64,000 nt of DNA from contig CAKPHG010000004.1 of the NCBI GenBank assembly GCA_934157035.1, positions 53,594 through 117,593 of the forward strand, in the 5' to 3' direction. The stretch is from an uncultured Clostridia bacterium (GTDB lineage: Bacteria; Bacillota; Clostridia; TANB77; CAG-508). The notes beneath the pieces are model-generated. The model made no database searches. It was given only the letters and a program-made list of their open reading frames with translations, and had not been told where the DNA came from. Positions within the stretch are counted from its first letter, which is position 1. The number at the start of each line of letters is the position of its first letter. Made by a program: the position numbers and the translations under genes. Of this stretch, positions 12,215-35,444 are shown one piece after another.

Positions 12215-12225
12215 CAGGTCACACA

Positions 12226-14957: not shown

Positions 14958-15036
14958 AAAACCTCCTAAACATTTTTATTTAATTTTATTATGCTTAGAA
15001 TGTCCTTTATTACTATAAATACCACATTTTGATATA

Positions 15037-15069
15037 CTAAACTAATAGGGACTGTCCCTATTAGTTTAG
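15037..15069. repeat. 33-nt perfect palindrome, collapsed copy of the GGGAC-core inverted-repeat element
   Basis: CTAAACTAATAGGGAC-T-GTCCCTATTAGTTTAG; halves match the terminal repeats at 35332..35364 and 35412..35444. Confidence 0.8.
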
Positions 15070-15111
15070 CAGTATTATGTAAAGAACAAGAATGACCTAT
15101 TTAAAAATGTC

Positions 15112-15143
15112 CTAAACTAAAACGGCCCGTCCCTATTAGTTTA
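15112..15143. repeat. solo copy of the GGGAC-core element; its end overlaps the stop codon of ABC gene 15141..17609
   Basis: CTAAACTAAAACGGCCCGTCCCTATTAGTTTA, one substitution relative to 35412..35444. Confidence 0.8.
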
Positions 15144-17609
15144 CTCTAAATCGTGTCTTGATAATATTTGTGCTGGCGTTTTTCTTAATACTCTGAATAG
15201 TGGCAATAATCCCACTATAATATTAAATGCATATATTAACAATATACTTAGTCCTATTACTTGGAAGTTTATTATAAACATTTTTGATAATTGTCTTATT
15301 TGAATTAGACAATTTAGTATATAACTCATAAATATTATTCCAAGCATACTAACAGATATTGTTATTGCTATAGTTTCTCCTACAAACATTTTGTAAATGT
15401 CGCTTTTCTTTACTCCTATTGCTCTCAAAATTCCAACTTCTTTTATTCTAGATAAGAATGATGATCTCATCATTAAATATATTTCTACTAATGATATTAC
15501 AAGTATTATTCCTGCAAATATAATTGCACTTTTTCTTGAAGAACTTTGTTCTTTTAAATATGCTTTTTTATCATTTTGATATGTATTTTCTACAAACAAA
15601 TTATATTTTTCGTCAAATTCACTAATTACTTTTTCTTCATCTTTTGGATAAATAACAAGGTTTTGACTTTCTGTTATTAATTTGTATTTAGCAGTGTTTT
15701 CATTTACTAAGTAGCTATTATCATTTGTTTCTGAGTCATAATATCCTACAACTGTGAGTTCTGTTCCATTTATTGTTGTCTTTATTTTTTTGTTTAATTT
15801 CATACTATATTGATTGCTTATATTTACAATTACTTCATAGTCGTTTTCTGGTAGTCTTCCCTTTTTTAGCGTAATTGTGTCTAATTTTAGCTCATAATTT
15901 ACTATATTTTCTTGTGATTTTTCCTGCTCACTATTATCTATTACTATTCCTGTCATATTATCAGATTTGTTGGTATTGCATAATATGTTGTTAAAAATAG
16001 TCTCCTTTGTATATATAGATGGGCTCTTTAAGTCTACTATTCCTACTATTTCAAAATTTTTCATATTTGGAATTGATACTTTTTTGCCTAATAGTTGACT
16101 TGCATTTTTTATTCCAGCATGTGATATTCCACTATTTGAATTTATCATTTTATCAACTGTCATTTTATCTATTACTATTTCGTATTCATTTTTTGGAAGT
16201 CTTCCTTCTGTAATGTCACTTTCGCTTAACATATTTACTGTTGAAAGTGATCCTGCAAGTTCTCCATCTAGTTTGCTTGTTTGATAATATTCATCAAATT
16301 TTATTGCAAATGAGACACTACTATTTCCTGGTAAAATATAATTTACATTTTCGTTTTGCTCATATTCTAAGAATTGGTCTACATTTAATCTTGGAAGTTT
16401 TACTTCTAAATAATTTTTGTTTCTGCTAATAAAATCTTCATCTTTTGTATTTAATGTTCCTGCAATATTACTAATTGCATATAGAACAAACATTGCAGAT
16501 ACAAAAAATCCTATTAATAAAATCTTCTTTAATACTGAATAACTTAATATCTTTTTAAATCCATTTACTATTGACCTTGGTATACTGTAAATAGAGCTAT
16601 ATTTAGGTTTTATACTTTTATCTGTTATTTTATCTAAGTTATAATTATATTGTTCAAATATTGTCTTATCTATTTTTTTATAATGGTCATCTACTAGTTC
16701 TACAACTGAACTTTCATCTATAACTTCTACTTTTTTATCATTTGATTTAATATATATATTTCCGTTTTTTATTACAATTTGTATATTTAAAGAATCTTCA
16801 TTTTCTTTATATATATTTAAATTTATGTTGTCTTTTTTAATTTCTTCAATTTTCTCAAAATCTTTTAAATATATTTTATTATCTAGTCTGTAGTCTAAGT
16901 CTTTTTCTTCTGTATTTTCGTAGTCTTTTTCTACTTTTCCGTCTACTATTTCTATTATTCTTGAAGCATAAAATTTAGCAAGTTCAACCTCATGTGTTAC
17001 TAAAATGACTAGTTTATCTTTTGAAATTGCTTTTATTATATTCATTATTTCTAATGAATTTTTACTGTCTAAGTTTCCTGTTGGCTCATCTGCTATAATA
17101 ATATTTGGATTTTTTACTATTGCTCTTGCTATACCAACTCTTTGTCTTTCTCCTCCTGAAAGCATACTTGCAAGTCTATTTCTATAACGATACATATTTA
17201 CACTTTCTAATACATAGTCTACTCTCTTTTTTATTTCGTTTTTATCTTTTATTCCTATCATTTTTAGTGTAATTGCAATATTTTCGAAAACTGTCATATT
17301 ATCTAGTAATTTGTAATCTTGAAATATATAACCTATATTTAAGTTTCTTATTTTATCAACTTTGTGGCTTGTTCTTCTAGTTATTTTTTGCCCATTAATA
17401 TAGATTTTGCCTTTATTTATTTTATCTAATCCGCCTATACTATTTAAAAGTGTAGTCTTTCCGCTTCCAGAATGTCCAAGTAAGGCAACTAATCCAGTTT
17501 TACCAAATTCAAGTGTTGTGTTATTTATAACATGAATTTGATTTTTCTTTCCTTTATTAAAATATTTATTTGCTTTTTCTATTTTTATCATTGCCTTACA
17601 CCTCCTCAT
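15141..17609 (-). CDS. ABC transporter, fused ATP-binding domain + FtsX/MacB-type permease
   Basis: Walker A GHSGSGKTT, signature LSGGERQRVGIARA, large extracytoplasmic domain, C-terminal FtsX-like 4-TM bundle. Confidence 0.85.
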   Translation of the reverse strand: MRRCKAMIKIEKANKYFNKGKKNQIHVINNTTLEFGKTGLVALLGHSGSGKTTLLNSIGGLDKINKGKIYINGQKITRRTSHKVDKIRNLNIGYIFQDYKLLDNMTVFENIAITLKMIGIKDKNEIKKRVDYVLESVNMYRYRNRLASMLSGGERQRVGIARAIVKNPNIIIADEPTGNLDSKNSLEIMNIIKAISKDKLVILVTHEVELAKFYASRIIEIVDGKVEKDYENTEEKDLDYRLDNKIYLKDFEKIEEIKKDNINLNIYKENEDSLNIQIVIKNGNIYIKSNDKKVEVIDESSVVELVDDHYKKIDKTIFEQYNYNLDKITDKSIKPKYSSIYSIPRSIVNGFKKILSYSVLKKILLIGFFVSAMFVLYAISNIAGTLNTKDEDFISRNKNYLEVKLPRLNVDQFLEYEQNENVNYILPGNSSVSFAIKFDEYYQTSKLDGELAGSLSTVNMLSESDITEGRLPKNEYEIVIDKMTVDKMINSNSGISHAGIKNASQLLGKKVSIPNMKNFEIVGIVDLKSPSIYTKETIFNNILCNTNKSDNMTGIVIDNSEQEKSQENIVNYELKLDTITLKKGRLPENDYEVIVNISNQYSMKLNKKIKTTINGTELTVVGYYDSETNDNSYLVNENTAKYKLITESQNLVIYPKDEEKVISEFDEKYNLFVENTYQNDKKAYLKEQSSSRKSAIIFAGIILVISLVEIYLMMRSSFLSRIKEVGILRAIGVKKSDIYKMFVGETIAITISVSMLGIIFMSYILNCLIQIRQLSKMFIINFQVIGLSILLIYAFNIIVGLLPLFRVLRKTPAQILSRHDLE

Positions 17610-19833
17610 TATATGTCTTTATTGCAGATTTTTTGAAGATTTTTCTAGAAACTCTTCTTGATATTAATATAGACATTATAATTAAAATAGCGTACATAAC
17701 AATGTATTCTCTTAAGCTTAAAAATTCTATTAATTCTTGTACAAATGCTACATTTACAATTTTATATTGGTTAAGTAATATGAATACTATACAAGTTAGA
17801 TATGCTAAGCTTGAATTTATAAATAATTCTATATCTAGTATTTTTTTAACATTTTTTGTAGTTGCTCCAAGCATTCTTAATGTTGTAAAGTATACATTTC
17901 TAGATTTTAATATAATTCTTATAATAAAGTAAGAAATAAAGAATAGTGCAAAAATTAATACACTTGTTATTACTACTTTAAATATTTTTATAACTTGCAA
18001 CATTTCTTGTCCTTCAAGTATTTTGAATTCTTTTATTGGTTTTCCTATTACTCCTATTTTTTGTAAATTGTTTATTGTTTCTTGCATCTTTTCATTATCT
18101 GCATCTTTTACAAAAATTGATGATTGATAAGGCTCTTTGTTAAATAGACTTATATACTCATCTTCATTCACAAACACAGCACCTTTATATTGTTCATATT
18201 CTTTATAACCTGTTAACCTTGTAAATGAATTTTTAGTATATGTACTAGATACTTTTAAATTTAATTCATCACTATAATAGATATTTTCTACTTCTATTTT
18301 TAAATCTTTGCCTCTTGCTCTATTATTTGAACATAAATAATTTACTTCGTCACTAACTACAGCGTTTCCTTTACTTACTCTATTACTTGGCATAATCCTA
18401 AAGTATGAATTCCATTGTTCAGATTTATAATATTTTCCTTCAAATAAAGTTTTTATATTGCTATAATTTTGATTTACATCTTTTCTTAAATTATTTAGTA
18501 CTGTATTGCTTGCATAAAATGTTGTATCCATTCCATAATAAAACATGTTGTTTTGCTTATATACTTCTACTCCAACTATCCTTAATTTAAAGTCTTTTTC
18601 TCCATTTCCATAATTATCTCTTATTGTGAAATCTTTTTCTAGTATACTATCTGCTCCATCCCTTATATAGTAATAGTCATCTGGAATTTTTATAATAATT
18701 TCATAATCCTCTTCTGGCATTCTTCCTGCTGTTAATGTACCTTTAAATCTTTCATAACTAGTCACTTTTCCATAAAAATACATATCATCACATTGCATGT
18801 TTATGGTAGTATCTAAAAGTAAGTCATCTTTTTCTATGTAGTCTACATTTTCTATTTTTCGTATATTTTCGTAATCTTCTTGTGTAAAATACATATTATC
18901 TGCCTTTTTTAATATTATTCTATTTTCTGATAAATCTCTAAAATAATAGTTATAACCTGCTTTTCCTGCCTCATATTCTGTTTGTTTAAAACTTGCATAT
19001 TCGCTAAGTAGTGCTGCTGTTATAAATAAAAATACAGCAAATAAAAGTAAGAATTTAGGAAGTATGTTAAAAGTATTTCTTATTCCTAGTCTTAACCTAT
19101 TACCAACAGTTATTTTTGTATATTTACTTTCTTCTACTTTTTCTGGTTCTTCAATATGTTTTATTTCTTTATTTTCTATAATTTTACCATCATGCATTTT
19201 TATAATTCTTGTAGCATAATCTTGTATTTGTTCTATGTTGTGAGTTACAACTATTACAAGTCTGTCTTTTGCAACTTTTTTAAGAAGTTCTATTACATCT
19301 TTAGCTGAATTTGCATCTAAATTTCCTGTTGGTTCATCTGCTACAATAATTGGTGTTTCTTTTACCATTGCTCTTGCTATCGCTACTCTTTGCTTTTGAC
19401 CACCTGATAATTTAGAAACTTTTGTATTTTTAAATTCAGTAAGACCAACTTTTTCTATCATATCTAATACTTTTTGCTTTACTTGTTTCTTTTTATAACC
19501 ATTTAGTAAAAGCACTAATTCTACATTTTGATATACAGTATAACTATTTATTAAATTAAAACTTTGAAAAATGTTTGCTATGTATTTTCTTCTATAGTCT
19601 TCAAAATCTTTTTCTGTATAATGGCTAGTCTCTTTGCCATTTATATACATTTCGCCTTCTTCATAGCTATCTAAACCTGAAAGTACATTTAAAAGAGTAC
19701 TTTTTCCACTACCAGACTCTCCAGTAATAGCAACAAATTCTCCTATTTTTAATTCTAGGTTTATTTTTGTAAAACCTGTTGAAATCATACCCTTGTTATA
19801 GTAAAACTTCGATACATCTTTTAACTTTAACAT
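17596..19833 (-). CDS. ABC transporter, fused ATP-binding domain + FtsX/MacB-type permease (tandem paralog)
   Basis: Walker A GESGSGKST, LSGGQKQRVAIARA, FtsX-like C-terminus; overlaps downstream gene by 14 nt (operon). Confidence 0.85.
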   Translation of the reverse strand: MLKLKDVSKFYYNKGMISTGFTKINLELKIGEFVAITGESGSGKSTLLNVLSGLDSYEEGEMYINGKETSHYTEKDFEDYRRKYIANIFQSFNLINSYTVYQNVELVLLLNGYKKKQVKQKVLDMIEKVGLTEFKNTKVSKLSGGQKQRVAIARAMVKETPIIVADEPTGNLDANSAKDVIELLKKVAKDRLVIVVTHNIEQIQDYATRIIKMHDGKIIENKEIKHIEEPEKVEESKYTKITVGNRLRLGIRNTFNILPKFLLLFAVFLFITAALLSEYASFKQTEYEAGKAGYNYYFRDLSENRIILKKADNMYFTQEDYENIRKIENVDYIEKDDLLLDTTINMQCDDMYFYGKVTSYERFKGTLTAGRMPEEDYEIIIKIPDDYYYIRDGADSILEKDFTIRDNYGNGEKDFKLRIVGVEVYKQNNMFYYGMDTTFYASNTVLNNLRKDVNQNYSNIKTLFEGKYYKSEQWNSYFRIMPSNRVSKGNAVVSDEVNYLCSNNRARGKDLKIEVENIYYSDELNLKVSSTYTKNSFTRLTGYKEYEQYKGAVFVNEDEYISLFNKEPYQSSIFVKDADNEKMQETINNLQKIGVIGKPIKEFKILEGQEMLQVIKIFKVVITSVLIFALFFISYFIIRIILKSRNVYFTTLRMLGATTKNVKKILDIELFINSSLAYLTCIVFILLNQYKIVNVAFVQELIEFLSLREYIVMYAILIIMSILISRRVSRKIFKKSAIKTYNEEV

Positions 19834-19851
19834 ATTTTCCTCCTTTGTTTC

Positions 19852-20187
19852 TTACATTCTTTTATATTTTTCACATTCTAATCTTTCATAGAATATATCT
19901 TCTAAATTTATTTGTTTTTGTATTAACTTTTCCTTTTGTTCTTTTTTTAGAGTTTTTATTGCATATTCAAGTTTAGATGCCAATTTTTTATCTTCAGTTT
20001 GCCATGATGCTTCAAGCTTTTTTGCCTTATGACTTTTTGTATATTTAGCACACTTTTCATCTTTAGAGAAATGCTCATTCATTCTTTTTTCTAAATCTTT
20101 GGCTATTCCAGTATATATTGAATTATCCTCACATCTTAACATATACACGTAATACATAGATTTTTCCTCCGTGACCATTTGAACCAT
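19852..20187 (-). CDS. GIY-YIG nuclease-family small protein (UPF0213-like)
   Basis: MYYVYMLRCEDNSIYTGIAKDLEKR = GIY-YIG motif. Confidence 0.8.
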   Translation of the reverse strand: MVQMVTEEKSMYYVYMLRCEDNSIYTGIAKDLEKRMNEHFSKDEKCAKYTKSHKAKKLEASWQTEDKKLASKLEYAIKTLKKEQKEKLIQKQINLEDIFYERLECEKYKRM

Positions 20188-20190
20188 TTT

Positions 20191-21021
20191 TTATTTTCCT
20201 ATGAAATTGATTTTAATATTTCCGACTCCTCCGTCTATATTTATTTTATTTTCTCCATTTCCCACTACTTTGTTATCTGAAATTTTCTCTTTATCTATAG
20301 TAACTTTTCCTAAACCTTTATTTATCTTTGTTGTGTATTCTTCTTTAATTCCAACTACATCTAATTTTAAGTTTCCTACTCCTGTGCCAATTCTAGTATT
20401 TCCTATTAATTTAGCTGAAATTTCAGTAGCTCCTATACCTAAATCACATTTTAGGTCAGTTATTTTTGAAGAATCTATTATAACTTTTCCTGCACCAGTA
20501 TCTATTTTGGCACTTTCAGTAATATTAATGTTTTTCATAGAAGTTTCACCAGCTCCTAAATCCATTTTTAATACTTTAGTGTTTAAAATTTCTATGTTTA
20601 CTTTTCCTGCTCCTGTATTAATATTTACACTGTCAAATTGTAAATTTTCTGGAACATATACAATCAATTCTTCTTTTTTATTATTGTTAAAAAACCAATT
20701 GTTGTCCTTTTCTTTTATTTGAATTTTTTTCTTATCTTGTTTACATTGAATATCCTTATTGCTTGATTCTACTTTTAAATGTTCTCCTTTTCTTATTGTT
20801 AAATTAGAATAAGCTATGTCTATATCTAAGAATGCTATGTTATCGTTTTCAATATTTGATGAAGTTTCAATTACATTATTACTATCACTGTTATTTTTTC
20901 CTATTTTTAATGTTAATGGTATGCTACTTACAACTCTTACTATTGTTGCAATAATTCCTACTATTAACGCTATTGCAAGTGCTATAGCTAAATATTTTAT
21001 TATTTTTTGTACTATTGACAT
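20191..21021 (-). CDS. DUF4097-family putative adhesin-like beta-repeat protein (LiaF-partner type)
   Basis: N-terminal TM then repeated TGAGKV/GVGN beta-strand repeats. Start placed at the internal ATG (21021) preceded by a GGGGGTG RBS. Confidence 0.6.
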   Translation of the reverse strand: MSIVQKIIKYLAIALAIALIVGIIATIVRVVSSIPLTLKIGKNNSDSNNVIETSSNIENDNIAFLDIDIAYSNLTIRKGEHLKVESSNKDIQCKQDKKKIQIKEKDNNWFFNNNKKEELIVYVPENLQFDSVNINTGAGKVNIEILNTKVLKMDLGAGETSMKNINITESAKIDTGAGKVIIDSSKITDLKCDLGIGATEISAKLIGNTRIGTGVGNLKLDVVGIKEEYTTKINKGLGKVTIDKEKISDNKVVGNGENKINIDGGVGNIKINFIGK

Positions 21022-21701
21022 TTTATATCTACACCCCCGAATATACATGTTGCATTTATATATATAATATGTCCTTCTGGATTTTCTTTATAGTTTTTCT
21101 TATCTGTTACTCCTCCAAATATTGAAGATGATTTGATTTTTACATTGCAGTTTTCTGGTACATATATTTCAACTCCACCAAATATTCCTGTTGCATTAAT
21201 TACTACATCTTGATTTATTATTGCATTTTTTATATCACATTTAACTCCTCCAAATACAGCCGTTAAATCTGCTCCTTTAAATTCTTGGTTTTCAAACTTA
21301 ACATCTTGTCCTGAAAAAGTTGCACAATATTCGTTATCTTTTGTCATATTCTTATTTAATTTTTTGATTTCACTATTTATTTTACTATTAAATGTATCTT
21401 TAAAAATAAGTGATAGTCCAATTACTACTAATATTACTGGAAGTGCTAATTTCCAGATTGTATCAAAATTTAATACATCTTGGCATCCTAATAGTAAAGC
21501 AATTCCTATTAATAGGCCTATTATATTTCCTGTTTTTTCTCTTTCTTTAAATAATCCTATAAAACATGGAATAATTATAAATAAAGTCCACCATCCGTCA
21601 AAAAATATATTTATATTTGTTATTCCTAAAGCGTTTCCTCCTATAATTAATCCTATTCCTATTAATACTATTCCCCATAGTATATTTCCAAAATTTTTCA
21701 T
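21012..21701 (-). CDS. LiaF-like cell-wall-active antibiotic response protein (DUF2154)
   Basis: N-terminal TM helices, C-terminal FGGV repeats characteristic of LiaF-type proteins. Confidence 0.7.
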   Translation of the reverse strand: MKNFGNILWGIVLIGIGLIIGGNALGITNINIFFDGWWTLFIIIPCFIGLFKEREKTGNIIGLLIGIALLLGCQDVLNFDTIWKLALPVILVVIGLSLIFKDTFNSKINSEIKKLNKNMTKDNEYCATFSGQDVKFENQEFKGADLTAVFGGVKCDIKNAIINQDVVINATGIFGGVEIYVPENCNVKIKSSSIFGGVTDKKNYKENPEGHIIYINATCIFGGVDIKCQ

Positions 21702-21843
21702 TTTTTCTTTCCCCTTTTACTCTTTTTATTATTATATTAGCTATTCTTATAAATAGTAATTAATTATTTTATAACATAAAAGCAGATAATTATCAATTAT
21801 CTGCTCTTATATTTTTTCTTTTTTTTTATAATTCAAAACATTT

Positions 21844-22641: not shown

Positions 22642-22892
22642 TTTTATTCACCTCACACTACATAATATGATTTTGTTTTACATAATGTGACAGTGTATAT
22701 TTTAATTAATTGATGTACCATTTACATATAATTTATAACCATTAAAGTTAATGTTACTATATGATGTATCTTCATCTGTTAAACTTGTTACATAACAGTC
22801 TCCTGTTAGTGTTAATGTAGATGTATAAATTGCTTTTAAACTGCATTTAATCATACAACTTGCATTTACTTTACAGAATTGCATTTAGTTTT

Positions 22893-23318: not shown

Positions 23319-23455
23319 ACATATACCTCCTGTATTTTTATAAAAGTATACCAAACTTTTATTGAAGTATTATTGAAACTTATTATATCAGAAAATGTAT
23401 TTTTTTACAAAATTTATACATACTATAATAAAATAATTTTATGGAGGATTTTACA

Positions 23456-25777: not shown

Positions 25778-27100
25778 TTAGCCTTTCTCTAATATTCTTT
25801 TTTCCTTTTGTGTTTCCGTAACACTATTACTTAATACTATAGTTCCAACAATAGATATAATTATAAATATAAAAATTATTTTCAAATTATTCAAATTGTG
25901 TGAAAATCCAACAAATATTAATAACAAAGTATAACCTAATATTCTTCCAATATTTAAAAATAATTCTCTATATAAAAAATACTCTGTATTGTATTTATCT
26001 TTATATTCCTTCTTATTAGAATAATTAAATAAATTGACTTCTGTAATTTTTAATATAATATTCATAAAAATGTAATAACTGATATTGTATAAAATAATAG
26101 AATTCATATTTATATTGTTCATTACTAAAGCAAAAGTAATAAAAAGAAATCCTAAAGAAAAACCTAATATAATCTTTTTATGTTTTTCCTTATAAAATTT
26201 AGCAAATATATACATTGTTAAAATAGAGCATAATGAAAGTAATGATGATATCCAACCTAATTCAAATTCATTCTTTGTATTATATATAATTAATAACGAT
26301 ACAACTAAACTCATAACTCCATATCTATTTATGCCTTTTAAAAATTCAATAGCATACAATTTTTTTAATGTTTTATCCTCTTTCAATTTATTAGCAAATT
26401 CTTTTACTTTTATATTTGATGTTTGTATATTTTTATTTTTTATATTAAAAGTATTTAAAATTTTAATAATTGAAAATATTAATATTAAAATTGCAGCTAC
26501 TTGATATGATTTTAAAGTTATATAAGCACCTAATATTATAGGAACAACAAAACTTATTATTTCTGTAAAAACAGAAACTAATCCTATGTATTTTGTTCTT
26601 TCTTTTTGCAGAATACTTTCTGACTCCATCATATTTAATGGAAATCCTGTAGTCGCTGTAGAAATACCATACATTATCCCAATTATATATACAAAATTAA
26701 TTATTTTATCTCCCATTACAATTATCATAAAAATATATAAAGCTTTTATAATAGTTCCAAATCTATATAATTTAATTTTATCTTTCTTTTTTATATAGTT
26801 AGCAACAATAAATGCACCTATTGTTGCTACTATCCATCCAACTATATTATAAATTGATAAATATAAAATATTTTGTTCCGTAATTTTATAAAAGTATGCT
26901 GCTAAAAATACATCTAAAAATATACTTATAACTTTTCCTATTGTTTGATCTACAATGAGTGTTTTAGCAGGTTTAGAAAGTCTATTACTTTGTTTTTTAT
27001 TAATATTACCTGTGTTTTTTAATTCTTTATCGTGTTCTACATATTCTTTCAATAATTCTTCATTAAAATTTGATGTTACATTATCTATTCCCATTTTCAT
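25778..27100 (-). CDS. MFS-type transporter whose first ~35 codons derive from a 5'(3')-deoxyribonucleotidase gene
   Basis: 12-TM MFS-like body. N-terminus MKMGIDNVTSNFNEELLKEYVEHDKELKNTG matches N-termini of dNT genes at 54834..56264 and 32049..32636. AAGGAG RBS before ATG 27100. Confidence 0.75.
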   Translation of the reverse strand: MKMGIDNVTSNFNEELLKEYVEHDKELKNTGNINKKQSNRLSKPAKTLIVDQTIGKVISIFLDVFLAAYFYKITEQNILYLSIYNIVGWIVATIGAFIVANYIKKKDKIKLYRFGTIIKALYIFMIIVMGDKIINFVYIIGIMYGISTATTGFPLNMMESESILQKERTKYIGLVSVFTEIISFVVPIILGAYITLKSYQVAAILILIFSIIKILNTFNIKNKNIQTSNIKVKEFANKLKEDKTLKKLYAIEFLKGINRYGVMSLVVSLLIIYNTKNEFELGWISSLLSLCSILTMYIFAKFYKEKHKKIILGFSLGFLFITFALVMNNINMNSIILYNISYYIFMNIILKITEVNLFNYSNKKEYKDKYNTEYFLYRELFLNIGRILGYTLLLIFVGFSHNLNNLKIIFIFIIISIVGTIVLSNSVTETQKEKRILEKG

Positions 27101-27168
27101 TAATTGCTCCTTATTATTCACCATTTATATCTACTATCATATCATATTAATATAAATAAGAAAAGAAG

Positions 27169-27210
27169 AATAAGGACATTTGGGGACGGGGCTCTTTTGT
27201 TCTTTACATA
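27169..27210. repeat. degenerate copy of the GGGAC-core/AATGTCCTT repeat family, abutting the stop of MFS gene 27214..28419
   Basis: Reverse complement TTATGTAAAGAACAAAAGAGCCCCGTCCCCAAATGTCCTTATT is ~85 % identical to 33447..33490. Confidence 0.7.
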
Positions 27211-27213
27211 ACT

Positions 27214-28419
27214 TCATTCTTTTTTACTTACAAAATAAATTCCTAGTGTTATATATGATAATATTGCTAAACCAAAAGTAATTTTTATAACATTATCATT
27301 TTCAGACAAAACTGTATATGATAGTATTGGCAAAATCGCTGTTACAATTCCTTCTATAAATCTTTCAAAAGTAACATATGATGTCTGTAATTTATCTTTT
27401 GAAGCCTCATATATAGCAACATTATCAAATATTTCATAAGCTCCATTCCCCATTCCTAGTAATAAATAAATTATTGGTAATATATATATTAATATTTCAT
27501 TTGATGCAATAAATAAACTTGAAAAAGCAAATATAAATATCATACACATTGGTAAAATAACCTTTTTCCAATTCCTACTATTTGCTTTTCTTGACCAAAA
27601 CTTACTTGATACTGCTTCAGATAAATTTATTATGATATTTAACAAACTATAATAAATATAATTTATATTTAAATATCTAAGTAAGAAAACATTTAAATAC
27701 ATTATACCTATTCCATTTGCAAATCTATTTATTCCACATGTTATAATTATCTTTCTAAATTTTTTATCTGTTGCTGGAATTTTTATTGTATCCTTTATGG
27801 TTATTTTATCTTCTTTTATAGGTGGTTTGTATGTATTAATTCTTATTGTTATATCTATAAATGCAATTAAAAATACAATTGAAAATAAAATCATAAATCC
27901 GTATAACTCATACCCATTTTGTGTGAATCTATCAAGAGTAATTCCCATAATTAAGCTAAATAATAAAACTATGGTATTTTTATACATATTTTTCGTTGCT
28001 GCAAACTTAGTTCTGTCTTCTTTTTTTAATAAAGACATTCTCCAATTAACAAAAGTTATATATCCCATCTCTCCTGTAATTGCATATATTGAAGCAAATA
28101 TAAAGAACAATATAGTTCGTATGTTTACATCTCTTGATATAAACGGAATAATTGCGAAGCATACTGATGCCAGTCTGTATATTGAATAATTTGTTAATAC
28201 AACTTTTTTTGATTGTCCTATTCGTGAAAACAATGGTGCTGCAAATATTTGTAAAACATTCGTTATTGTATCTAAAACAGCATAAATTCCAATTGCCAAG
28301 TCTGATAAACCTAAATATACAGCAAAAGCTGATATAAACGATGTGCTAGCTATTTTATTGTTTGCATTATCTAGTACTGATGAAGTTAAGTATTTTTGGT
28401 ATTCCTTTTTATAGTTCAT
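27214..28419 (-). CDS. MFS transporter
   Basis: 401 aa, 12 predicted TM helices, MFS-like organisation. Confidence 0.8.
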   Translation of the reverse strand: MNYKKEYQKYLTSSVLDNANNKIASTSFISAFAVYLGLSDLAIGIYAVLDTITNVLQIFAAPLFSRIGQSKKVVLTNYSIYRLASVCFAIIPFISRDVNIRTILFFIFASIYAITGEMGYITFVNWRMSLLKKEDRTKFAATKNMYKNTIVLLFSLIMGITLDRFTQNGYELYGFMILFSIVFLIAFIDITIRINTYKPPIKEDKITIKDTIKIPATDKKFRKIIITCGINRFANGIGIMYLNVFLLRYLNINYIYYSLLNIIINLSEAVSSKFWSRKANSRNWKKVILPMCMIFIFAFSSLFIASNEILIYILPIIYLLLGMGNGAYEIFDNVAIYEASKDKLQTSYVTFERFIEGIVTAILPILSYTVLSENDNVIKITFGLAILSYITLGIYFVSKKE

Positions 28420-28427
28420 TTTTTCTC

Positions 28428-29240
28428 CTATTCTATTTCTAACTTTTCATTGCAAAAATGTAATTTATCTATAATATCTTGTCCTATATGTTTATTTGCA
28501 ATTTCTACAGCTTTTTCACAGTTCATAATTTGATATTTAAAGTGAGCATCTACTCCATATAATACCTTTAAATTTTTATACTCTGAAGCTATTTTCCAAA
28601 ATTCTTTACAAGGATACACTATACTTTCTCTTTTTCCTATTATACATTCATTAGGATGAGATAAATTAATTTCTATTGGTATTCCATATTTTTCTGCTGT
28701 ACTACAAATTATGTGTGCAACTTTTTCATCTACTTTTCTAAAATTTTGTCTACTTAGCATATATATATCAGGATGTGCTATTATATCTGGTATGTTTTTT
28801 TCAATCGCTATTTTTACATATTCCGCATATTTTAAAGCATCATCATCAGTAAATTCTTGTCTTCTTAAAATTTTAATATCATTATTTTCATCATATATAA
28901 AATGCTGTCCCAGAATTATCTTATCTGATTCATTTTTTATTTCAAATAAGTTTTCCTCTTGTCCTGGTAAATATTCAACTTCAAAACCAGTCTCTATTTC
29001 TATTTTATCTTTATACTTTTCTTTTAAAGATTTTATACTATTTAAATATTCATTTTTTTCACTATATTTCATTCTCATATTTTTTCTATAATCTATTTCT
29101 TCTTTTTCAGGGCAATGGTCCGTAAATGCTATCTTTGTAAAACCCTTTTGAATAAATAGTTTTACAAAATCTTCATCTGTCATATTATTATCAGCATGTC
29201 CACATCTTCTTGTATGTGTATGGTAGTTAAATTTTTGCAC
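28428..29240 (-). CDS. PHP-domain phosphoesterase, histidinol-phosphatase (HisJ) family
   Basis: NYHTHTRRCGHA N-terminal metal-binding motif and further PHP His/Asp motifs. Confidence 0.75.
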   Translation of the reverse strand: MQKFNYHTHTRRCGHADNNMTDEDFVKLFIQKGFTKIAFTDHCPEKEEIDYRKNMRMKYSEKNEYLNSIKSLKEKYKDKIEIETGFEVEYLPGQEENLFEIKNESDKIILGQHFIYDENNDIKILRRQEFTDDDALKYAEYVKIAIEKNIPDIIAHPDIYMLSRQNFRKVDEKVAHIICSTAEKYGIPIEINLSHPNECIIGKRESIVYPCKEFWKIASEYKNLKVLYGVDAHFKYQIMNCEKAVEIANKHIGQDIIDKLHFCNEKLEIE

Positions 29241-29254
29241 AATTTCTCTCCTTT

Positions 29255-29857
29255 CTACAATTTCTTTTCATATATAAACGCTTTTTCAGTATATCCGTTT
29301 CCAAGTTGTCCTATTTCTTTGTTTTCAACTATTGTTTCATATACTTTTTTACATCCTAAATTTTCATAAAATTTATAATTACATGATTCATCTGTCATTA
29401 TTTGAAGATTTTTCATATTATCTTTTTTTGCAAGTTCAAATACTTCTAATAATAATTTTTTACCTATTTTCTTACCTCTATAATCTTCATCCACTATTAG
29501 TATAGAAACCTCTCCATCAAAATAATTTTTTAATTTCTCTGGAATGTAATTATAATTATTTTCATATTCTTTAAATGCTTCTAAATTTTTTATACTTTTG
29601 CTTTTGTACAATTTATTTTTTACAAGTTCATAAAACTTTTTAGATGCTACATGTTTACTTGAATTTTCTTTTGAATAACCACAAAATCCTATAAGTTTGT
29701 TTCCTTCTTTATATTTTATTATCTTTTCACTTTCTTGTAAAATATCTAATAAATATATCCAAGCACAAATATCATTATCTGCTCCTGCTTCTTTTTTTCC
29801 TAAATTCCATTCTTTACTCAGTATTTTTACAGCTTGTTTCATTTCATTGTAATTCAT
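29255..29857 (-). CDS. GNAT-family N-acetyltransferase
   Basis: Acetyl-CoA binding motif ILIVDEDYRGKKIGKKLL. Confidence 0.75.
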   Translation of the reverse strand: MNYNEMKQAVKILSKEWNLGKKEAGADNDICAWIYLLDILQESEKIIKYKEGNKLIGFCGYSKENSSKHVASKKFYELVKNKLYKSKSIKNLEAFKEYENNYNYIPEKLKNYFDGEVSILIVDEDYRGKKIGKKLLLEVFELAKKDNMKNLQIMTDESCNYKFYENLGCKKVYETIVENKEIGQLGNGYTEKAFIYEKKL

Positions 29858-29958
29858 CTATTTTTCCCTTCTCTCATGAAAATATGATTCATTTTGCCAA
29901 AAATAATTATTTTTTGAAATTTTTATTATTTTTCCTTTCTATATTTCTTAATAAAAAA

Positions 29959-30873
29959 CTACTTCAAAAACTCATCATCTATTATTACTTTACTATTTTC
30001 TATTTTTACATTTACTCCAATTGGAATTATACTATTAACAATTTTATGACCAAAATCATTACATTTAATAATTGGAAAACTATATTCTTTAGTATATTCA
30101 AGCAATATATCTTCCATTTGTGGATATATATTGCCATCTTTTTTTAAATCATAATTATATCCAATTACAATACCGTTTATTTTATCAAATATACCATATT
30201 GTTTTAAATGAGCAAATCTTCTTTGACACTCATTTGGTGATGTTTCATAACTCTCGATAAATAAAATATTATGGTCAATACTTGGTAAATATTCTGTTCC
30301 AAGTAGGTACATCATACAACCTAAATTTGTTCCAATAATTTTTCCTGAAGAAATGCCATTTCTTATAACTTCTTTATTTTCATTATTAAATTTATCTAAC
30401 TTTTTATTTATAAAAGCATCTTCAAATACTTTATACTGTTCTTTAGAATTTGTGTCTCCAAATGATATAAAATTTGGTCCACTAAATGTAATTAATCCTG
30501 TTTTTTTATAAATCGTTTGAAGTAATACTGTTATATCGCTATACCCAACTAATATTTTAGGATGCTTTTTTATTTCTTCATAATCTAATAAATCTATAAA
30601 TGTATTGCATGTTTGTCCACCTTCTAAACATATTATTGCTTTTACTTCGTCATCTAAGAACATATTCATAAGATCTTCTGCTTTTTGTTTTCTTGTTCCA
30701 CAAGAGCCATAGTAATCTTCTTCTACATATTTTCCAAATTTGATTTTAAAATTTTTGCTTTCCAAAAATTGCTTTGCATTAGCAAAGTCATTATACCTAT
30801 TATTTAAAGCTAAACTATTTGATACCCCTACTATTCCAATAGTATCTCCATAATTTAATTTATCCGCTAACAT
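29959..30873 (-). CDS. LD-carboxypeptidase (peptidase S66; LdcA/MccF-like)
   Basis: GYSDITVL nucleophile-elbow motif and S66-like architecture. Confidence 0.8.
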   Translation of the reverse strand: MLADKLNYGDTIGIVGVSNSLALNNRYNDFANAKQFLESKNFKIKFGKYVEEDYYGSCGTRKQKAEDLMNMFLDDEVKAIICLEGGQTCNTFIDLLDYEEIKKHPKILVGYSDITVLLQTIYKKTGLITFSGPNFISFGDTNSKEQYKVFEDAFINKKLDKFNNENKEVIRNGISSGKIIGTNLGCMMYLLGTEYLPSIDHNILFIESYETSPNECQRRFAHLKQYGIFDKINGIVIGYNYDLKKDGNIYPQMEDILLEYTKEYSFPIIKCNDFGHKIVNSIIPIGVNVKIENSKVIIDDEFLK

Positions 30874-32045
30874 AGTTTCTCCCTTTTTCTTAAATATATC
30901 ATATAATAAGCTAAACTTATTTGGAATATCATAAATAAAGCAGATAAGCCAAACATATATCGTAATCCTTTTTCATACATTAGACCACACAAAAATACTC
31001 CTATTGCCTCTCCTAAAAATCTAATTATATGACATACATTTGAAAAACTTAATTGATATTTATTTTCTAATCTATTAATGTATACAGCATCACAAATATT
31101 TTCGTATGCTGTTGAAATAAATATTGACCAGGTAATTGCAATTAATGTAATTGCTATATTATTTGATACAAATGCTACTATATATCCTAAAAATCTTATT
31201 CCAAATTTTATAGTTACTGTTAGATAATCATTTTTAGGTGTTAAATATTTTAATGCTATAATTCCAAATATGTCTGCTAAAAGACCAATTACTAATAAAT
31301 AATTTGTTGCTACATTATCGCTAAAATTAAAATAATTTGTTAATGTTAGCATTTTTAATCCAAGTGCTGTTGACATTGCAATAGTTCCTATTAAAGTATA
31401 AAACAAATATAATATTAAAATTTTATCTTTAAAAATATATTTTGAAGATATTTCTTTATGTTCATTATTATTTTCTAAGTTATTTACTTTTATATTAAGC
31501 AATATAAATAGTGAAAACATTAAGAATAAATTTGCTATAAATAAGCAAACATTATAATTTATAAGCAATCCTGCAATACTTTTGCCTATAAATACTCCAC
31601 CAAATAAAATTCCAACATCTCTAAATAAATACTCTGTTAATCTTCTTTTGCTATAGATTGTTCCAGTTTTTACTATTGTAGTTATTAATGGATATATACT
31701 TGTGATTATTATGTATTCTGTTACAATATCTATTATTATCGATAATTTAATTTTTCCTACATAGCTTGTACTATTTAAGAAACATAACCAAAACATATTT
31801 ATAAATTTTATTAATATAACTATAACTAATACACTCTTTAGTCTATCTATCTTTACATATTTTCCAATCAATCCAATAATTACAACGCTTATTAAAGTTC
31901 CTATACTTAATATACTACTTATATTTGTAACAGCAAAATTATTATCTTGTAACCATAGTTGTCTAAAGTTTCCCCATAATCCAACTGATATGCTGAAAAA
32001 TGCTAACATTATTAGTATTTGATTTTCATTTTTTATTTTTTTCAT
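30867..32045 (-). CDS. MFS transporter
   Basis: 392 aa, 12 TM; overlaps upstream gene by 7 nt. Confidence 0.8.
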   Translation of the reverse strand: MKKIKNENQILIMLAFFSISVGLWGNFRQLWLQDNNFAVTNISSILSIGTLISVVIIGLIGKYVKIDRLKSVLVIVILIKFINMFWLCFLNSTSYVGKIKLSIIIDIVTEYIIITSIYPLITTIVKTGTIYSKRRLTEYLFRDVGILFGGVFIGKSIAGLLINYNVCLFIANLFLMFSLFILLNIKVNNLENNNEHKEISSKYIFKDKILILYLFYTLIGTIAMSTALGLKMLTLTNYFNFSDNVATNYLLVIGLLADIFGIIALKYLTPKNDYLTVTIKFGIRFLGYIVAFVSNNIAITLIAITWSIFISTAYENICDAVYINRLENKYQLSFSNVCHIIRFLGEAIGVFLCGLMYEKGLRYMFGLSALFMIFQISLAYYMIYLRKREKLC

Positions 32046-32048
32046 TTG

Positions 32049-32636
32049 TTACTCCATTTCATTTATGTAACTATATATTTCATTCCAATTTTTTAATTGT
32101 TTAATTTTATCATAATTATAAATTTCGTTAGTTATCATAATTGTTTGTATTCCAACATTTTGAACACCTAGACAATTATTAAGTTGGTCATCTATAAATA
32201 AATCAATTTTTTCATTTTTACATACAGATGATTTTTCTCTAGCGTTTACTATTAATTTATCATAATAAATTTCATTTTTATCCAGCCAATCTTTACTTAA
32301 TTTATATGGATCGTCATGAAATTCTGAATCTCTGGCTGTAATAATATATATTTCATGTCCCTCTTTTTTTAATTTATCTATTACTTCTTTTGCGTTTTCT
32401 CTTGGAGTTGCATTATTAGTAATATTTTCTTGAATATTTTTTAAGAAATATTTTAATTCCTCATATTCAAATTGAAACTTTTTTCTATATGTATCTCCAT
32501 TGTTTTTTATATCTTCCATTGGATTATCATAATTATCAATTTTCTTTCCTAAACTAATTGCATATTCAAATGCTGCTTTATTTAGTTCTTCTTGCACTTC
32601 AGTTAATGTATTGTCTATATCAATTCCTATTCTCAT
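32049..32636 (-). CDS. HAD-superfamily 5'(3')-deoxyribonucleotidase (NT5C-like), standalone copy
   Basis: MRIGIDIDNTL (DxD HAD motif I) and NT5C-like motifs; GGAGG RBS before ATG 32636. Confidence 0.8.
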   Translation of the reverse strand: MRIGIDIDNTLTEVQEELNKAAFEYAISLGKKIDNYDNPMEDIKNNGDTYRKKFQFEYEELKYFLKNIQENITNNATPRENAKEVIDKLKKEGHEIYIITARDSEFHDDPYKLSKDWLDKNEIYYDKLIVNAREKSSVCKNEKIDLFIDDQLNNCLGVQNVGIQTIMITNEIYNYDKIKQLKNWNEIYSYINEME

Positions 32637-33327
32637 TTTTTCCTCCATATTCATCATATATTTTTCCATCAGTAATTAAAAAATTTTCAACTGTATTTTT
32701 TATCTTTTCAATTTCATATCCATCTGCATTACAAATATTCCAGCCTCTTTTTTGTGCTGGAATCAAATTTTCCATTACATCATCTATAAATAAAATATTT
32801 GTTGGTTCAATTTTACAATCATTTTCTACTTTAATGTATATTTCTTCTTTTGGCTTTTTACATTCCATTTCAAAAGATAGCCAAACATAATCAAATTTTG
32901 ATAAATTGTAATGTTTATCTATTCTGTTTTTATCTAAAATGGATAAATTAGATAAAATTCCTATTTTGCATTTATCTTTTAAACTATGTGCAAATTTAAC
33001 AACATCTTTATAGTATTCAATTTTATCAAATTTTTCTTGATACATAGCATAAAATTCATCATAATTACATTGTATTCCAAATGATTTTTTTATTCGTTCA
33101 AACCATTTTTGTATATCTTCTTTTTTATATATTTCTGAAATACATTTATTATTTTCATCATGATTGCATTCATTCCATTTTTTTGTTATTGCATTTTCAC
33201 TTAATTTATTCTCAATCAAACTCTTTATTATATCTGTTCTTGCATTAAAAACGTTATATTCTCCTTCTCTGTGACTTTCTACTACTCCACCCCAGTCAAA
33301 AATTACTATCTTATTTTTATCTCTCAT
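32620..33327 (-). CDS. HAD-family hydrolase
   Basis: IVIFDWGGVV motif I; HAD-like sequence; GAGGAG RBS before ATG 33327. Confidence 0.65.
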   Translation of the reverse strand: MRDKNKIVIFDWGGVVESHREGEYNVFNARTDIIKSLIENKLSENAITKKWNECNHDENNKCISEIYKKEDIQKWFERIKKSFGIQCNYDEFYAMYQEKFDKIEYYKDVVKFAHSLKDKCKIGILSNLSILDKNRIDKHYNLSKFDYVWLSFEMECKKPKEEIYIKVENDCKIEPTNILFIDDVMENLIPAQKRGWNICNADGYEIEKIKNTVENFLITDGKIYDEYGGKNENRN

Positions 33328-33446
33328 TATTTTCTCCTCTTTTACAATTTTCATTGATTTTATCATATAAAGTATTTTAAATGCAACAAAAAAATATCTA
33401 ACAAAGTATAATTCTATTAGATATTTTTTATTATATTAAATTCAAT

Positions 33447-33490
33447 TATGTAAAGGGCAAAAGTGAGTAAGTCCCAAAATGTCCTTTATT
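33447..33490. repeat. copy of the GGGAC-core/AATGTCCTTTATT repeat family overlapping the stop codon of ABC gene 33486..35303
   Basis: TTATGTAAAGGGCAAAAGTGAGTAAGTCCCAAAATGTCCTTTATT; complement of the TAA stop lies inside CCTTTATT. Confidence 0.7.
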
Positions 33491-35303
33491 CTTCTACCTC
33501 TTCAAATTGGCTATTGTATAGGTCTGCATAGAATCCGCCTTTTGCTAAAAGCTCTTCGTGTGTTCCTTGCTCTACTATATCTCCATGATTCATAACTAAA
33601 ATTAGATCCGCATTTTTTATTGTTGATAGTCTATGTGCAATTATGAAGCTTGTTCTTCCTTTCATCAGGTTATCCATTGCTGCTTGAATTTGTAATTCCG
33701 TTCTTGTGTCTATTGAACTTGTTGCTTCGTCTAATATTAATATTTTTGGATCTGCTAAAATTACTCTTGCTATTGTTAATAATTGTTTTTGACCTGCAGA
33801 TACATTGCTTGATTCTTCATTTAGTACCATGTCATAACTACTTGGAAGTGTTTTTATAAAATGATGTACATGTGCTGCTTTTGCTGCTTCTATTACTTCT
33901 GCATCTGTTGCATCTGGCTTACTATAACGAATATTGTCTTTTATAGTTCCACCAAATAGCCATGTGTCTTGAAGTACCATTCCAAACATTTTTCTTAAAT
34001 CTTCACGTTTGAAATCTTTTATATTTATTCCATCTAACAAAATTGCACCACTATTTACATCATAAAATCTCATAAGCAATTTTACCATTGTTGTTTTTCC
34101 TGCGCCTGTTGGTCCTACTATTGCAATCTTTTGACCATCTTCAACTTTTGCACTAAAATCATTTATTATTATTCTATCTTCATCATATCCAAATTTTACA
34201 TGGTCAAATGTGATATTTCCTTTTAGACCTTCTGTAGATTTTGGATTTTCTACATCTTCTACTTCTTCTGGTTCTTCTAAAAATTCAAATACTCTTTCTG
34301 CAGCTGCTACCATTGCTTGTAACATTGAAGATACTTGTGCTATTTGGTTTATTGGCTGTGTAAATTGTTTGTTATATTGTATAAATGATTGTATATTTCC
34401 TACTGTAATTTTTCCTTGAATTGCTAAATATCCACCTAAAATTGCAACTGCTACATATCCTATATTTCCTATAAAGTTCATTATTGGAAATATTAAACCT
34501 GATAAGAATTGAGACTTCCATGCTGATTGATACAATTCTTTGTTGGCTTTGCTAAATTCTTTTATTGCTTCATTTTCGCCATTAAATGCTTTTACTATTG
34601 TGTGTCCGCCATATATTTCTTCTACTTGACCATTTACATGACCTAAATAATCTTGTTGTTTCTTAAAGTATTTTTGTGATTTTCCTACTACATTTTTTAC
34701 TATAAATACAGTAACTGGTAAAATTAATAGTGAAACAAGTGTCATTTCCCAGCTTATTGAAAACATCATTATTACCACACCAATTAGCGTACATATTGAA
34801 GTTATAATTTGTGTAATACTTTGATTTAAGTTTTGAGAAAGTGTATCTATGTCGTTTGTTATTATAGATAATACTTCACCTTTTGTTTTTTTATCAAAAT
34901 AATGCATAGGTAATTTGTTTATTTTTTTAGCTAAATCATTACGCATTTTATATGTTAGTTTTTGTGCAACACCTGTCATTGTGAACCCTTGGATAAGTGA
35001 AAATAATGCACTTAATCCATATAATGCAAGTAATGTAAGTAAAATTTGTCCTATTTTTCCAAAGTCTATTCCGCTTCCACCAGATAATTTGCTAACTAAT
35101 CCATTAAATATTTCTGTTGTAGCATTTCCTAATATTTTAGGTCCTACTATTGAAAATATTGTACTTCCAATAGCAAATATTATTACTATTACTAATGCTA
35201 ATCTATATTTTGATAAATAATTGTTTAATAGTTTTTTAGTTGTTCCTTTAAAATCTTTTGCTTTTTCTACTGTTTTACCAGGTCCTCTGCCTGGTCCTCC
35301 CAT
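33486..35303 (-). CDS. ABC exporter, TMD-NBD half transporter (heterodimeric ABC-exporter half)
   Basis: Walker A GPTGAGKTT, signature VSAGQKQLL, six-TM exporter fold, N-terminal MGGPGRGPGKTVEKAKDFKGT leader. Confidence 0.85.
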   Translation of the reverse strand: MGGPGRGPGKTVEKAKDFKGTTKKLLNNYLSKYRLALVIVIIFAIGSTIFSIVGPKILGNATTEIFNGLVSKLSGGSGIDFGKIGQILLTLLALYGLSALFSLIQGFTMTGVAQKLTYKMRNDLAKKINKLPMHYFDKKTKGEVLSIITNDIDTLSQNLNQSITQIITSICTLIGVVIMMFSISWEMTLVSLLILPVTVFIVKNVVGKSQKYFKKQQDYLGHVNGQVEEIYGGHTIVKAFNGENEAIKEFSKANKELYQSAWKSQFLSGLIFPIMNFIGNIGYVAVAILGGYLAIQGKITVGNIQSFIQYNKQFTQPINQIAQVSSMLQAMVAAAERVFEFLEEPEEVEDVENPKSTEGLKGNITFDHVKFGYDEDRIIINDFSAKVEDGQKIAIVGPTGAGKTTMVKLLMRFYDVNSGAILLDGINIKDFKREDLRKMFGMVLQDTWLFGGTIKDNIRYSKPDATDAEVIEAAKAAHVHHFIKTLPSSYDMVLNEESSNVSAGQKQLLTIARVILADPKILILDEATSSIDTRTELQIQAAMDNLMKGRTSFIIAHRLSTIKNADLILVMNHGDIVEQGTHEELLAKGGFYADLYNSQFEEVEE

Positions 35304-35331
35304 TGGTCCGTGGCATGTTTTCTCTCCTTTC

Positions 35332-35444
35332 CTAAACTAATAGGGACGGGCCTTTTTAGTTTAGTTAAATTAATTGATTTCAATCAATTTTATAGATTAA
35401 TAATTATTCTACTAAACTAAAAAGGCCCGTCCCTATTAGTTTAG
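35332..35444. mobile_element. 113-bp MITE-like element: 33-nt terminal inverted repeats around a 47-nt AT-rich core, in the intergenic spacer of the ABC exporter operon
   Basis: 35332..35364 is the exact reverse complement of 35412..35444; the right TIR contains the TAA stop of the upstream ABC gene. Confidence 0.6.

Follow-up and report, generated by a model that had tools for sequence, protein, structure and literature searches.

Repetitive extragenic palindromic (REP) sequences, as described for the REP/BIME-RayT system of Escherichia coli and the REPIN-RAYT systems of Pseudomonas, are short imperfect palindromes dispersed between genes, mostly downstream of genes and in many cases no more than 15 nt away from a stop codon. 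They occur as singles, inverted doublets and clusters of mixed types, are polymorphic between strains and go along with a vertically inherited, single-locus gene for a Y1/HUH enzyme, the REP-associated tyrosine transposase (RAYT), which is flanked by inverted copies of the repeat. The same properties were found for hairpin repeats with a GGGAC core that we analyzed on a stretch of 64 kb (the window) of contig CAKPHG010000004.1 from an uncultured Clostridia bacterium and on 82 retrieved loci (designated by L-numbers). The repeats are real, and in related gut Clostridia a RAYT-like gene is flanked by inverted units, an arrangement known as a REPtron (Quentin et al. 2018, PMC6006769). We consider it likely that the units constitute a REP/REPIN-RAYT system of TIRYT-like character, made up of hairpin repeats that hug stop codons, and we infer that they are mobile and play a role as RNA.

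In several respects the units depart from the REPs of E. coli and Pseudomonas. None of their families has GT[AG]G (GTAG or GTGG) at the foot of the hairpin, GGGACG being located in the tip instead. The host is an AT-rich Firmicute (approximately 27% GC), many stem families share one motif within a single genome, and the spacers of the doublets are unrelated. Another described group are the TIRYT/TIRtron loci, whose flanking repeats contain the motif GGGGWSAS, are sometimes self-complementary and moderately abundant, and form dimers or clusters (Di Nocera et al. 2013, PMC3733652). TIRYTs are probably the same as TnpA-Y1 subclass 2.1. Quentin et al. 2018 (PMC6006769) equate the two and give long proteins with a C-terminal helix-turn-helix (HTH) for this subclass, while no REP-like structures were found for it. 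Judged by these descriptions, our loci resemble TIRtrons, since the gene is flanked by inverted repeats with a G-rich motif (GGGGACGG agrees with GGGGWSAS at 7 of 8 positions) and its product is longer than RayT and has a helical C-terminal tail that may be HTH-like. They differ in position 7 of the motif, which is G and not A, in family A with only three G's, and in the compactness of the hairpins, none of which Quentin et al. reported for subclass 2.1. Furthermore, a TIRYT example from Firmicutes is not mentioned in the text searched.

The CGTC-tagged REPs of Di Nocera et al. 2013 show some likeness as well: the reverse complement of GGGACG contains CGTC, stems of 8-9 bp are AT-rich at the base, and head-to-head dimers predominate. 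However, these REPs possess a terminal unpaired CGTC, a loop of 4-5 nt and a CCA tail and lack a transposase, none of which holds for the units studied here. Membership in this group was ruled out by anatomy, as CGTC is internal, a CCA tail is not conserved and a transposase is associated.

Hairpin units at gene ends

The repeated unit is a single hairpin of 27-39 nt, a short imperfect palindrome which is built in the same way in all families. An AT-rich stem of 7-10 bp, specific for the family, is followed by GGGACG and, 4 bases further, by a near-invariant C. In the folded single strand the G's of the tip have C or U as partners in the 3′ half, so that 2-4 G-C/G-U pairs close a loop of 3-6 nt. 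This tip is common to at least ten stem families, namely family A, a variant with the stem TAAACTAT, the families B, C (GAGCCGAA or TGACGCA) and D, and further ones with CTGTTTTT, TTGCCAAA, GTCAATA, ATGACGCAAA and TTAAATTTTA. Perfect palindromes with the tip GGGAC-T-GTCCC also occur. In an alignment of 18 units, 11 out of 14 pairs changed on both sides (covariation score 0.497 vs 0.189 for shuffled units), a result that is descriptive and no proof because these units had been picked by hand as hairpin-forming. At the gathering score, no family of Rfam 15 matched the units, which gave only sub-threshold matches to generic long-hairpin (microRNA) models; a scan of the window at this level yielded three tRNAs only. 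A pairing of the tip sequence GACGGGC with GCCCGUC of the 16S decoding site was dropped as a probable coincidence, only GACG being conserved across families.

Family A units comprise 33 nt (CTAAACTAA-TAGGGACGGGCCTTT-TTAGTTTAG). Allowing up to three mismatches, the 16-mer CTAAACTAATAGGGAC of this family was detected at nine sites in the window, as against 0.66 expected, and none of the shuffled sequences reached nine. Family B is a separate family and reads AAAGGACA-TTTGGGGACGGGNCNCTTT-TGTCCTTT-ACATAA on its GGGAC strand. Individually, its short boxes TTATGTAAAG...AAATGTCCTT are not above chance; they co-occur at a fixed spacing, and the complete unit is present in other genomes. The units are found alone or as doublets, which are always convergent with the GGGAC sides pointing outward, including mixed pairs of B and A. 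The arms of a doublet are usually identical at the variable positions of the tip. The spacers at different loci, even within one metagenome-assembled genome (MAG), are unrelated and range from 6 to approximately 90 nt, and solo units are common. For these two reasons the single hairpin is the repeating unit, and not the 113-bp doublet which the initial annotation had described as an element resembling a miniature inverted-repeat transposable element (MITE).

The window harbors four A units, three B units, two C arms and one D unit:

11707..11775, plus strand: family D unit with GGGAC cores at 11719 and 11754 around a CGTTCCG-TTTT-CGGAAC hairpin, immediately 5′ of the ileS ribosome-binding site
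12099..12216, no strand assigned: family C doublet of 118 bp, its 37-nt arms 100% complementary (GAGCCGAA-GGGGACGTTTCTT-TTCGGTTC...) with 44 nt between them
14999..15011, minus strand: what is left of a family B 5′ arm (minus-strand sequence AATAAAGGACATT), kept in all three strain alleles of the spacer
15037..15069, no strand assigned: perfect family A palindrome of 33 nt, tip GGGAC-T-GTCCC
15075..15113, minus strand: decayed family B unit, stem retained, tip degraded to AGGTC
15112..15144, minus strand: family A solo unit, sense to the ABC/FtsX gene and containing its TAA (15141-15143)
27169..27211, plus strand: family B unit with intact tip GGGGACGGGGC, antisense to the flanking genes of the major facilitator superfamily (MFS), 3 nt from TGA 27214-27216
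33446..33488, minus strand: family B unit, sense to the 605-aa ABC exporter gene, whose TAA (33486-33488) abuts AGGACA and has its AA within the B stem
35332..35364, plus strand: family A unit, inverted partner of 35412-35444, antisense to the genes
35365..35411, no strand assigned: AT-rich doublet spacer, unrelated to doublet spacers elsewhere
35412..35444, minus strand: family A unit, sense to the upstream ABC exporter gene and holding its TAA (35436-35438, the second TAA of CTAAACTAA)

All sequences given in the initial annotation were found at their positions, among them the perfect palindrome, the solo unit and the inverted pair at 35332-35364 and 35412-35444. The two arms of this pair are exact reverse complements (33/33) and can be extended to 39 nt at 95%, leaving 35 nt between the extended arms. 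The box noted near 15000 turned out to be the B arm remnant at 14999-15011. That all GGGAC/GTCCC repeats form one family was confirmed insofar as the repeats are real, but the sites at 27169, 33446 and 15075 make up the separate family B. Overlooked had been the doublet at 12099-12216 and the unit at 11707-11775, both with a GGGAC core. An overlap or abutment with a stop codon was indeed found at each of the four loci for which it had been claimed, the TAA being supplied or shared three times (15141, 33486, 35436) and not twice.

The outer end of the unit at 35332-35364 lies 1 nt from the Shine-Dalgarno sequence of the 605-aa ABC exporter gene (ATG at 35303). The unit at 33446..33488 has a partly decayed tip in the strain of the window and an intact one in others; an intrinsic terminator comes next. 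The solo unit at 15112-15144 shows one terminal and one loop difference. The palindrome at 15037-15069 has the form expected of a doublet after collapse between the two GGGAC sites. With the gene orientation kept constant, the base at its centre (15053) is an A in both the window and L050 but a T in L052, as would result from inversion of the complete palindrome. The family C doublet is situated between a T-box terminator and the ribosome-binding site of a DUF1653 gene and is missing in sister strains. The T-box leader itself (12245-12486, minus strand) heads the DUF1653-ileS operon and scored 84.4 bits (E 4e-18), and was missed by the default Rfam scan because this is below the gathering score of 93. 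The family D element is retained by each of the ten strains examined, and another species has it at 84% identity (also L010 583-645, L027 and L031). As this conservation exceeds that of the other units, the element may itself function as a leader.

Further copies, for which the initial annotation had proposed a search, do exist. The exact family A pattern occurred in 26 metagenome stretches and in four species-level MAGs of uncultured Clostridia from the human gut, the latter accounting for 11 stretches; one MAG contained nine exact matches in seven loci. Conservation of 90% or above is confined to the repeats, the flanking DNA being unrelated or approximately 70% identical. Several contigs stop at a unit, as is expected of a multi-copy repeat. 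Neither family A nor family B had a match in viral contigs. A plasmid collection contained no match to the B element, and its matches to the A doublet were confined to AT-rich chance hits in the spacer. The genes at the four stop codons of the window (ABC/FtsX, MFS and two ABC exporters) all encode transporters, as had been noticed before. This association is a coincidence of the window, since the units elsewhere neighbor or follow varied genes (rplI/dnaB, a uridine-kinase-like gene, groES/groEL, FTHFS, metS and others).

The position of the units was determined by simple calling of long open reading frames (ORFs) in approximately 630 kb. After removal of redundant loci, 42 intergenic hairpins with a GGGAC[G/T] tip remained, 23 of which start within -12 to +10 nt of the stop codon of the co-oriented upstream gene. 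No unit in antisense orientation does so. Upon random placement and orientation in the same spacers, 5.0 ± 1.9 units fell into this interval, with a maximum of 14 in 5000 trials. Antisense units instead lie 14-30 nt from the next start codon. Relative to the strand on which the majority or minority of the local genes reside, the units are distributed 22:20, and two solo units follow minority-strand genes, again in sense orientation. Thus, the stop bias is related to the genes and not to the direction of replication. RNA folding, another check suggested by the initial annotation, disclosed that the GGGAC strand is the more stable one in 37 of the 42 units (mean -11.2 vs -8.1 kcal/mol, p=1e-7) and likewise in each of the six individually folded families. 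A direct precedent for the position of the units are REPs of E. coli that are located no more than 15 nt from a stop codon, which stall ribosomes and reduce expression of the preceding gene (Liang et al. 2015, as summarized in PMC12306157).

A RAYT-like gene flanked by inverted units

In L032 four units cluster around an ORF of 246 aa (2375-3115, minus strand), with one unit 77 nt past its stop codon and two tandem inverted units approximately 100 nt before its start. The gene was found by reading the ORFs within the unit cluster. Its product contains the motif GNHVHML (HUH) and scored 39.4 bits against the Pfam model Y1_Tnp (PF01797, cut-off 23). With the NCBIfam model for REP-associated tyrosine transposases it reached 72.3 bits, as opposed to 19.1 bits with the IS200 model. 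At least 366 homologues of approximately 245-260 aa exist, many of them on contigs of about 1 kb, and both HxH and the tyrosine (Y118) of CINYIHxNPVKA are invariant in the homologues compared. With E. coli RayT the protein shares 19% identity over the core, where both motifs are aligned, but it is approximately 80 aa longer. The AlphaFold model (predicted local distance difference test, pLDDT, 83.8) had its best match in the Protein Data Bank with 4ER8, the structure of RayT with a REP hairpin (E 1.4e-5, TM 0.67, root-mean-square deviation 3.1 Å), which ranked ahead of the IS608 and ISDra2 transposases. The C-terminal tail of about 100 aa is predicted to be all-helical (pLDDT 85-92). It gave only sub-threshold matches to HTH_11, HTH_3 and Sigma70_r4, and PF13412 was matched by one homologue.

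Six RAYT loci, whose proteins are 100, 52, 50, 47, 44 and 44% identical, were inspected. Each of them is bracketed by an inverted pair of units with a GGGACG tip, GGGAC sides outward, and the stems all differ: CTAAACTAA (family A of the window), TAAACTATT, CGCGAACTA, AAGATGATTTTA, GAAATTTT and one form with a weak stem. The upstream flanking unit is 117-162 nt away from the RAYT start at the five loci measured. In L063 and L074 the flanking pair represents the sole GGGACGG sites in 6.7 kb. The gene order FTHFS-RAYT-groES-groEL persists in loci whose proteins are 100, 52 and 50% identical, and this synteny at 50-52% identity indicates vertical inheritance. A second RAYT locus, linked to metS, was found in L063 and L080.

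Upstream of the RAYT start, at a distance of approximately 30-45 nt, there is a conserved box, AAGATGT-N(12-26)-GGGGC (e.g., L070 5945-5971, L063 2943-2971, L074 2929-2961 and L077 2440-2471; near variants in L067 and L080). It was present in 14 loci among the 82 retrieved, only upstream of RAYT, and is absent from the window. The box may be a leader or an autoregulatory site.

By analogy with TnpA(REP) of E. coli and its GTAG-tagged REPs, the RAYT-like enzyme would recognize the folded GGGAC strand as single-stranded DNA and cut and rejoin DNA beside it, whereby units could be copied or moved in trans. Copies might persist where they are least harmful or somewhat useful, that is right after a stop codon and in sense orientation, either by target choice or by selection. 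At this position, the transcribed G-rich strand would provide the more stable RNA hairpin, and a basal stem with TAA in two frames could replace the last codons of the gene. In operons, the second, antisense unit would end at the next ribosome-binding site. As judged from the E. coli example, hairpins located no more than 15 nt from a stop codon probably affect the decay of the upstream mRNA from its 3′ end or the termination of translation.

Strain alleles and competing explanations

The species represented by the window is very common: for its ABC exporter protein, more than 120 variants with 98-100% identity exist. The comparison with empty sites in related strains, which had been suggested by the initial annotation, showed three sites of the window to be filled, differently filled or empty in near-identical strains, the flanking genes being 98-100% identical. 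The spacer between the two ABC exporter genes contains the A doublet in the window and in L016-L021. In L012-L014 it contains a different doublet of the same design (family E, stem TTACCCCA), and in L015 it is empty; there, the upstream protein is 7 residues longer and the stop codon of its gene overlaps the next ATG. A 13-mer common to the arms of the family E doublet (L012 ABC|ABC), TCCAGGTTATAAT, also resides in a terminator-like hairpin with a 20-bp stem at 5081-5131 of the window. Between the T-box and the DUF1653 gene, the C doublet (window, L050, L052) is opposed by six strains without a unit and by another insert of 105 nt in L053 and L054 (3824-3932). The latter has no GGGAC core, forms two hairpins, follows the T-run of the T-box terminator and appears to be a different small element. 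The spacer after the ABC-FtsX stop codon exists in three forms: A plus B plus the A palindrome, a single K hairpin (stem TTAAATTTTA) with a terminator, or just a terminator. The single K hairpin of L048 suggested that stems might be derived from local sequence, an idea that was not adopted, as there was one ambiguous alignment only. In close relatives, the rplI/dnaB spacer is occupied by one unit or by a doublet; across three species, it contains A(+), A(-) or B+A(-). Moreover, the copies at 33446 and 15075 are decaying in place.

Variation was also observed on a larger scale. An island between the genes of the 605-aa ABC exporter and the RsmF methyltransferase comprises seven genes in the window (25778-33366), five different genes in L012 (11816-15952) and merely a truncated PHP remnant in L015 (11800-12110). 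In the window and L012 it is enclosed by family B units in inverted orientation, which are separated by 4-6 kb. The island genes of these two are ordinary metabolic ones or unknown, without a transposase match, and the two unknowns are mutually unrelated. At another locus, a 521-bp insert (L041 3519-4041, compared with L006 2453-2459) is located exactly between the last codons of a gene and a family A unit. It contains a small ORF of its own (approximately 140 aa with CxxC motifs) and is flanked by the direct repeat ATAGTA. As to other repeats of the window, the segments 44996-46399 and 54838-56266, approximately 9.85 kb apart, are 71-73% identical and carry paralogous NT5C and inosine-uridine nucleoside hydrolase genes; the longest inverted repeat is formed by the tRNA genes at 44792-44862 (plus strand) and 57290-57360 (minus strand).

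Several observations weigh against a REP/RAYT-type system. A RAYT gene was found neither in the window nor in approximately 40 kb of its contig with Pfam annotations, BLAST of the RAYT loci against the species of the window gave no shared genes, and the enzyme is linked to the genome of the window only through identical family A stems in another organism. Against the NCBIfam model for REP-associated tyrosine transposases, NF047646 (REP_Tyr_transpos), the L032 protein with its 72.3 bits (E 3.6e-20) stays just below the curated cut-off of 80. As the conserved motif lies in the tip of the hairpin and not at its 5′ foot like GTAG, the mechanism of E. coli may not be directly transferable. A combination of usually identical doublet arms and unrelated spacers is poorly explained by REPIN copying or by independent insertions. 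Between filled and empty alleles the whole spacer including the ribosome-binding site is replaced, which is not a clean insertion, and at the alleles compared (ABC/ABC, T-box/DUF1653 and ABC-FtsX) no target-site duplication was seen. The sample of 42 positions stems from loci gathered via family A, and a few of its spacers are orthologous between species. Finally, a bias for one replication strand has been reported for IS200/IS605 elements; a bias of this kind is absent here, given the 22:20 distribution.

The best surviving alternative, which we regard as possible though clearly less probable and which overlaps with a REP/RAYT-type system rather than excluding it, is that the units are host RNA modules in the first place and mobile DNA only in the second, the transcribed GGGAC strand acting at the end of the ORF. 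Such modules might stop 3′ exonucleases, adjust termination or the rescue of ribosomes, or, as doublets, split an operon mRNA into a 3′-capped upstream and a 5′-capped downstream part. The 23:0 orientation at stop codons, the better folding of the G-rich strand in 37 of 42 units and six of six families, the two solo units in sense after minority-strand genes, the antisense partners that end 14-30 nt from the next start codon and the stop-proximal REPs of E. coli all agree with this idea. On the other hand, the decay of units in place (33446, 15075) and near-identical strains which have a normal terminator or coupled genes instead of a unit at the same site argue against it, as does the fact that only 4 of the 61 genes of the window carry a unit. 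It also leaves unexplained why the transposase gene is constantly flanked by units.

A rather doubtful variant of the REP/RAYT interpretation is that the RAYT of this clade is a domesticated enzyme that installs and swaps strand-specific hairpins exactly at ORF boundaries, from the stop codon (sense) up to the next ribosome-binding site (antisense), and rewrites whole spacers, the apical GGGACG serving both as DNA handle and as functional RNA tip with an effect on termination or decay. If true, this would amount to a genome-wide, transposase-driven editing of 3′ untranslated regions and operon junctions and not to a tolerated parasite.

Improbable is the explanation by a classical MITE, in which the 113-bp doublet would be a deletion derivative of a DDE-type insertion sequence with terminal inverted repeats of 33 nt, moved by cut-and-paste with duplication of TA or TAA. 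Like the bacterial MITEs RUP, Correia/NEMIS, bcr1 and ERIC, the doublets are small non-coding inverted-repeat elements beside genes which are transcribed and fold; their inverted ends are perfect, and TA is present at both outer ends. In addition, family B units in L024 bound a MITE-like element of 290 bp with a conserved interior, which is present twice (4166-4458 and 7262-7590) and also occurs in L010 and L031. Its interior is internally palindromic (…GAAATTATAATCGAAATTTGTGG…CCACAAATTTC…), and one of the L024 copies nests a family A palindrome. However, family A doublets, including those of a single genome, have spacers without relationship all the way to the arms, solo units are common, and each arm is itself a hairpin, so that the repeated unit of this family is not a body bounded by terminal repeats. 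A duplication could be distinguished neither for the doublets nor for the 290-bp element, a DDE transposase was not found in any locus, and the associated enzyme is of the Y1/HUH type. For family A, the MITE explanation is thus largely refuted.

Two further explanations are very improbable. The first one assumes ordinary intrinsic terminators or a shared operator of transporter genes that resemble each other by chance or convergence, and would account for the position just past stop codons, the palindromic forms and the four transporter genes of the window. It is contradicted by units of 33 nt that are identical across species whose genes are only about 70% identical, by the lack of a T-run after most units, by separate canonical terminators which sometimes directly follow a unit, by the non-transporter neighbors elsewhere and by doublets within operons. 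Among the functions proposed in the initial annotation, a REP-like one fits best, whereas a shared operator is unlikely because the units decay, are missing in sister strains and show a strand asymmetry that binding to double-stranded DNA does not need. The second one invokes attC-like sites, i.e. hairpins at ORF 3′ ends which mark exchangeable cassettes for a tyrosine recombinase; attC sites have a length of at least about 57 nt, R''/L''-L'/R' cores and lie in cassette arrays with an integrase. The strand-specific position at stop codons, the replacement of whole spacers between strains, the sequence CTAAAC...GTTTAG, which loosely recalls the R''/R' core sites, the gene cassette of 521 bp at a unit junction in L041 and the variable islands bracketed by inverted B units are outweighed by the length of the units (27-39 nt), other families without AAC/GTT, a location between core genes (rplI/dnaB, groES/groEL) and not in cassette arrays, and the lack of an integrase in any annotated locus, the adjoining enzyme being a RAYT.

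Meaning for the REP/RAYT family and its hosts

As presumed in the initial annotation, the units are a small dispersed repeat family at gene 3′ ends which sometimes supplies the stop codon and which is apparently undescribed in this lineage; in the literature searched, we found no description of a REP/RAYT-type system of this lineage and anatomy. REP/RAYT systems are known almost entirely from Proteobacteria and with GTAG at the foot of the hairpin, whereas the present loci are found in common uncultured Clostridia of the human gut. Their anatomy differs by the motif in the tip, the many stem families per motif and the longer transposase. As no REP-like hairpins are reported for subclass 2.1/TIRYT in the large survey by Quentin et al. 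2018, the loci may supply the missing DNA partner of these enzymes. Metagenome assemblies are broken by the repeats and gene ends displaced by a few codons, a fact relevant to the annotation of these MAGs. The sense bias of 23:0 together with the naturally filled and empty alleles represents a clean natural experiment on possible effects of such repeats on mRNA.

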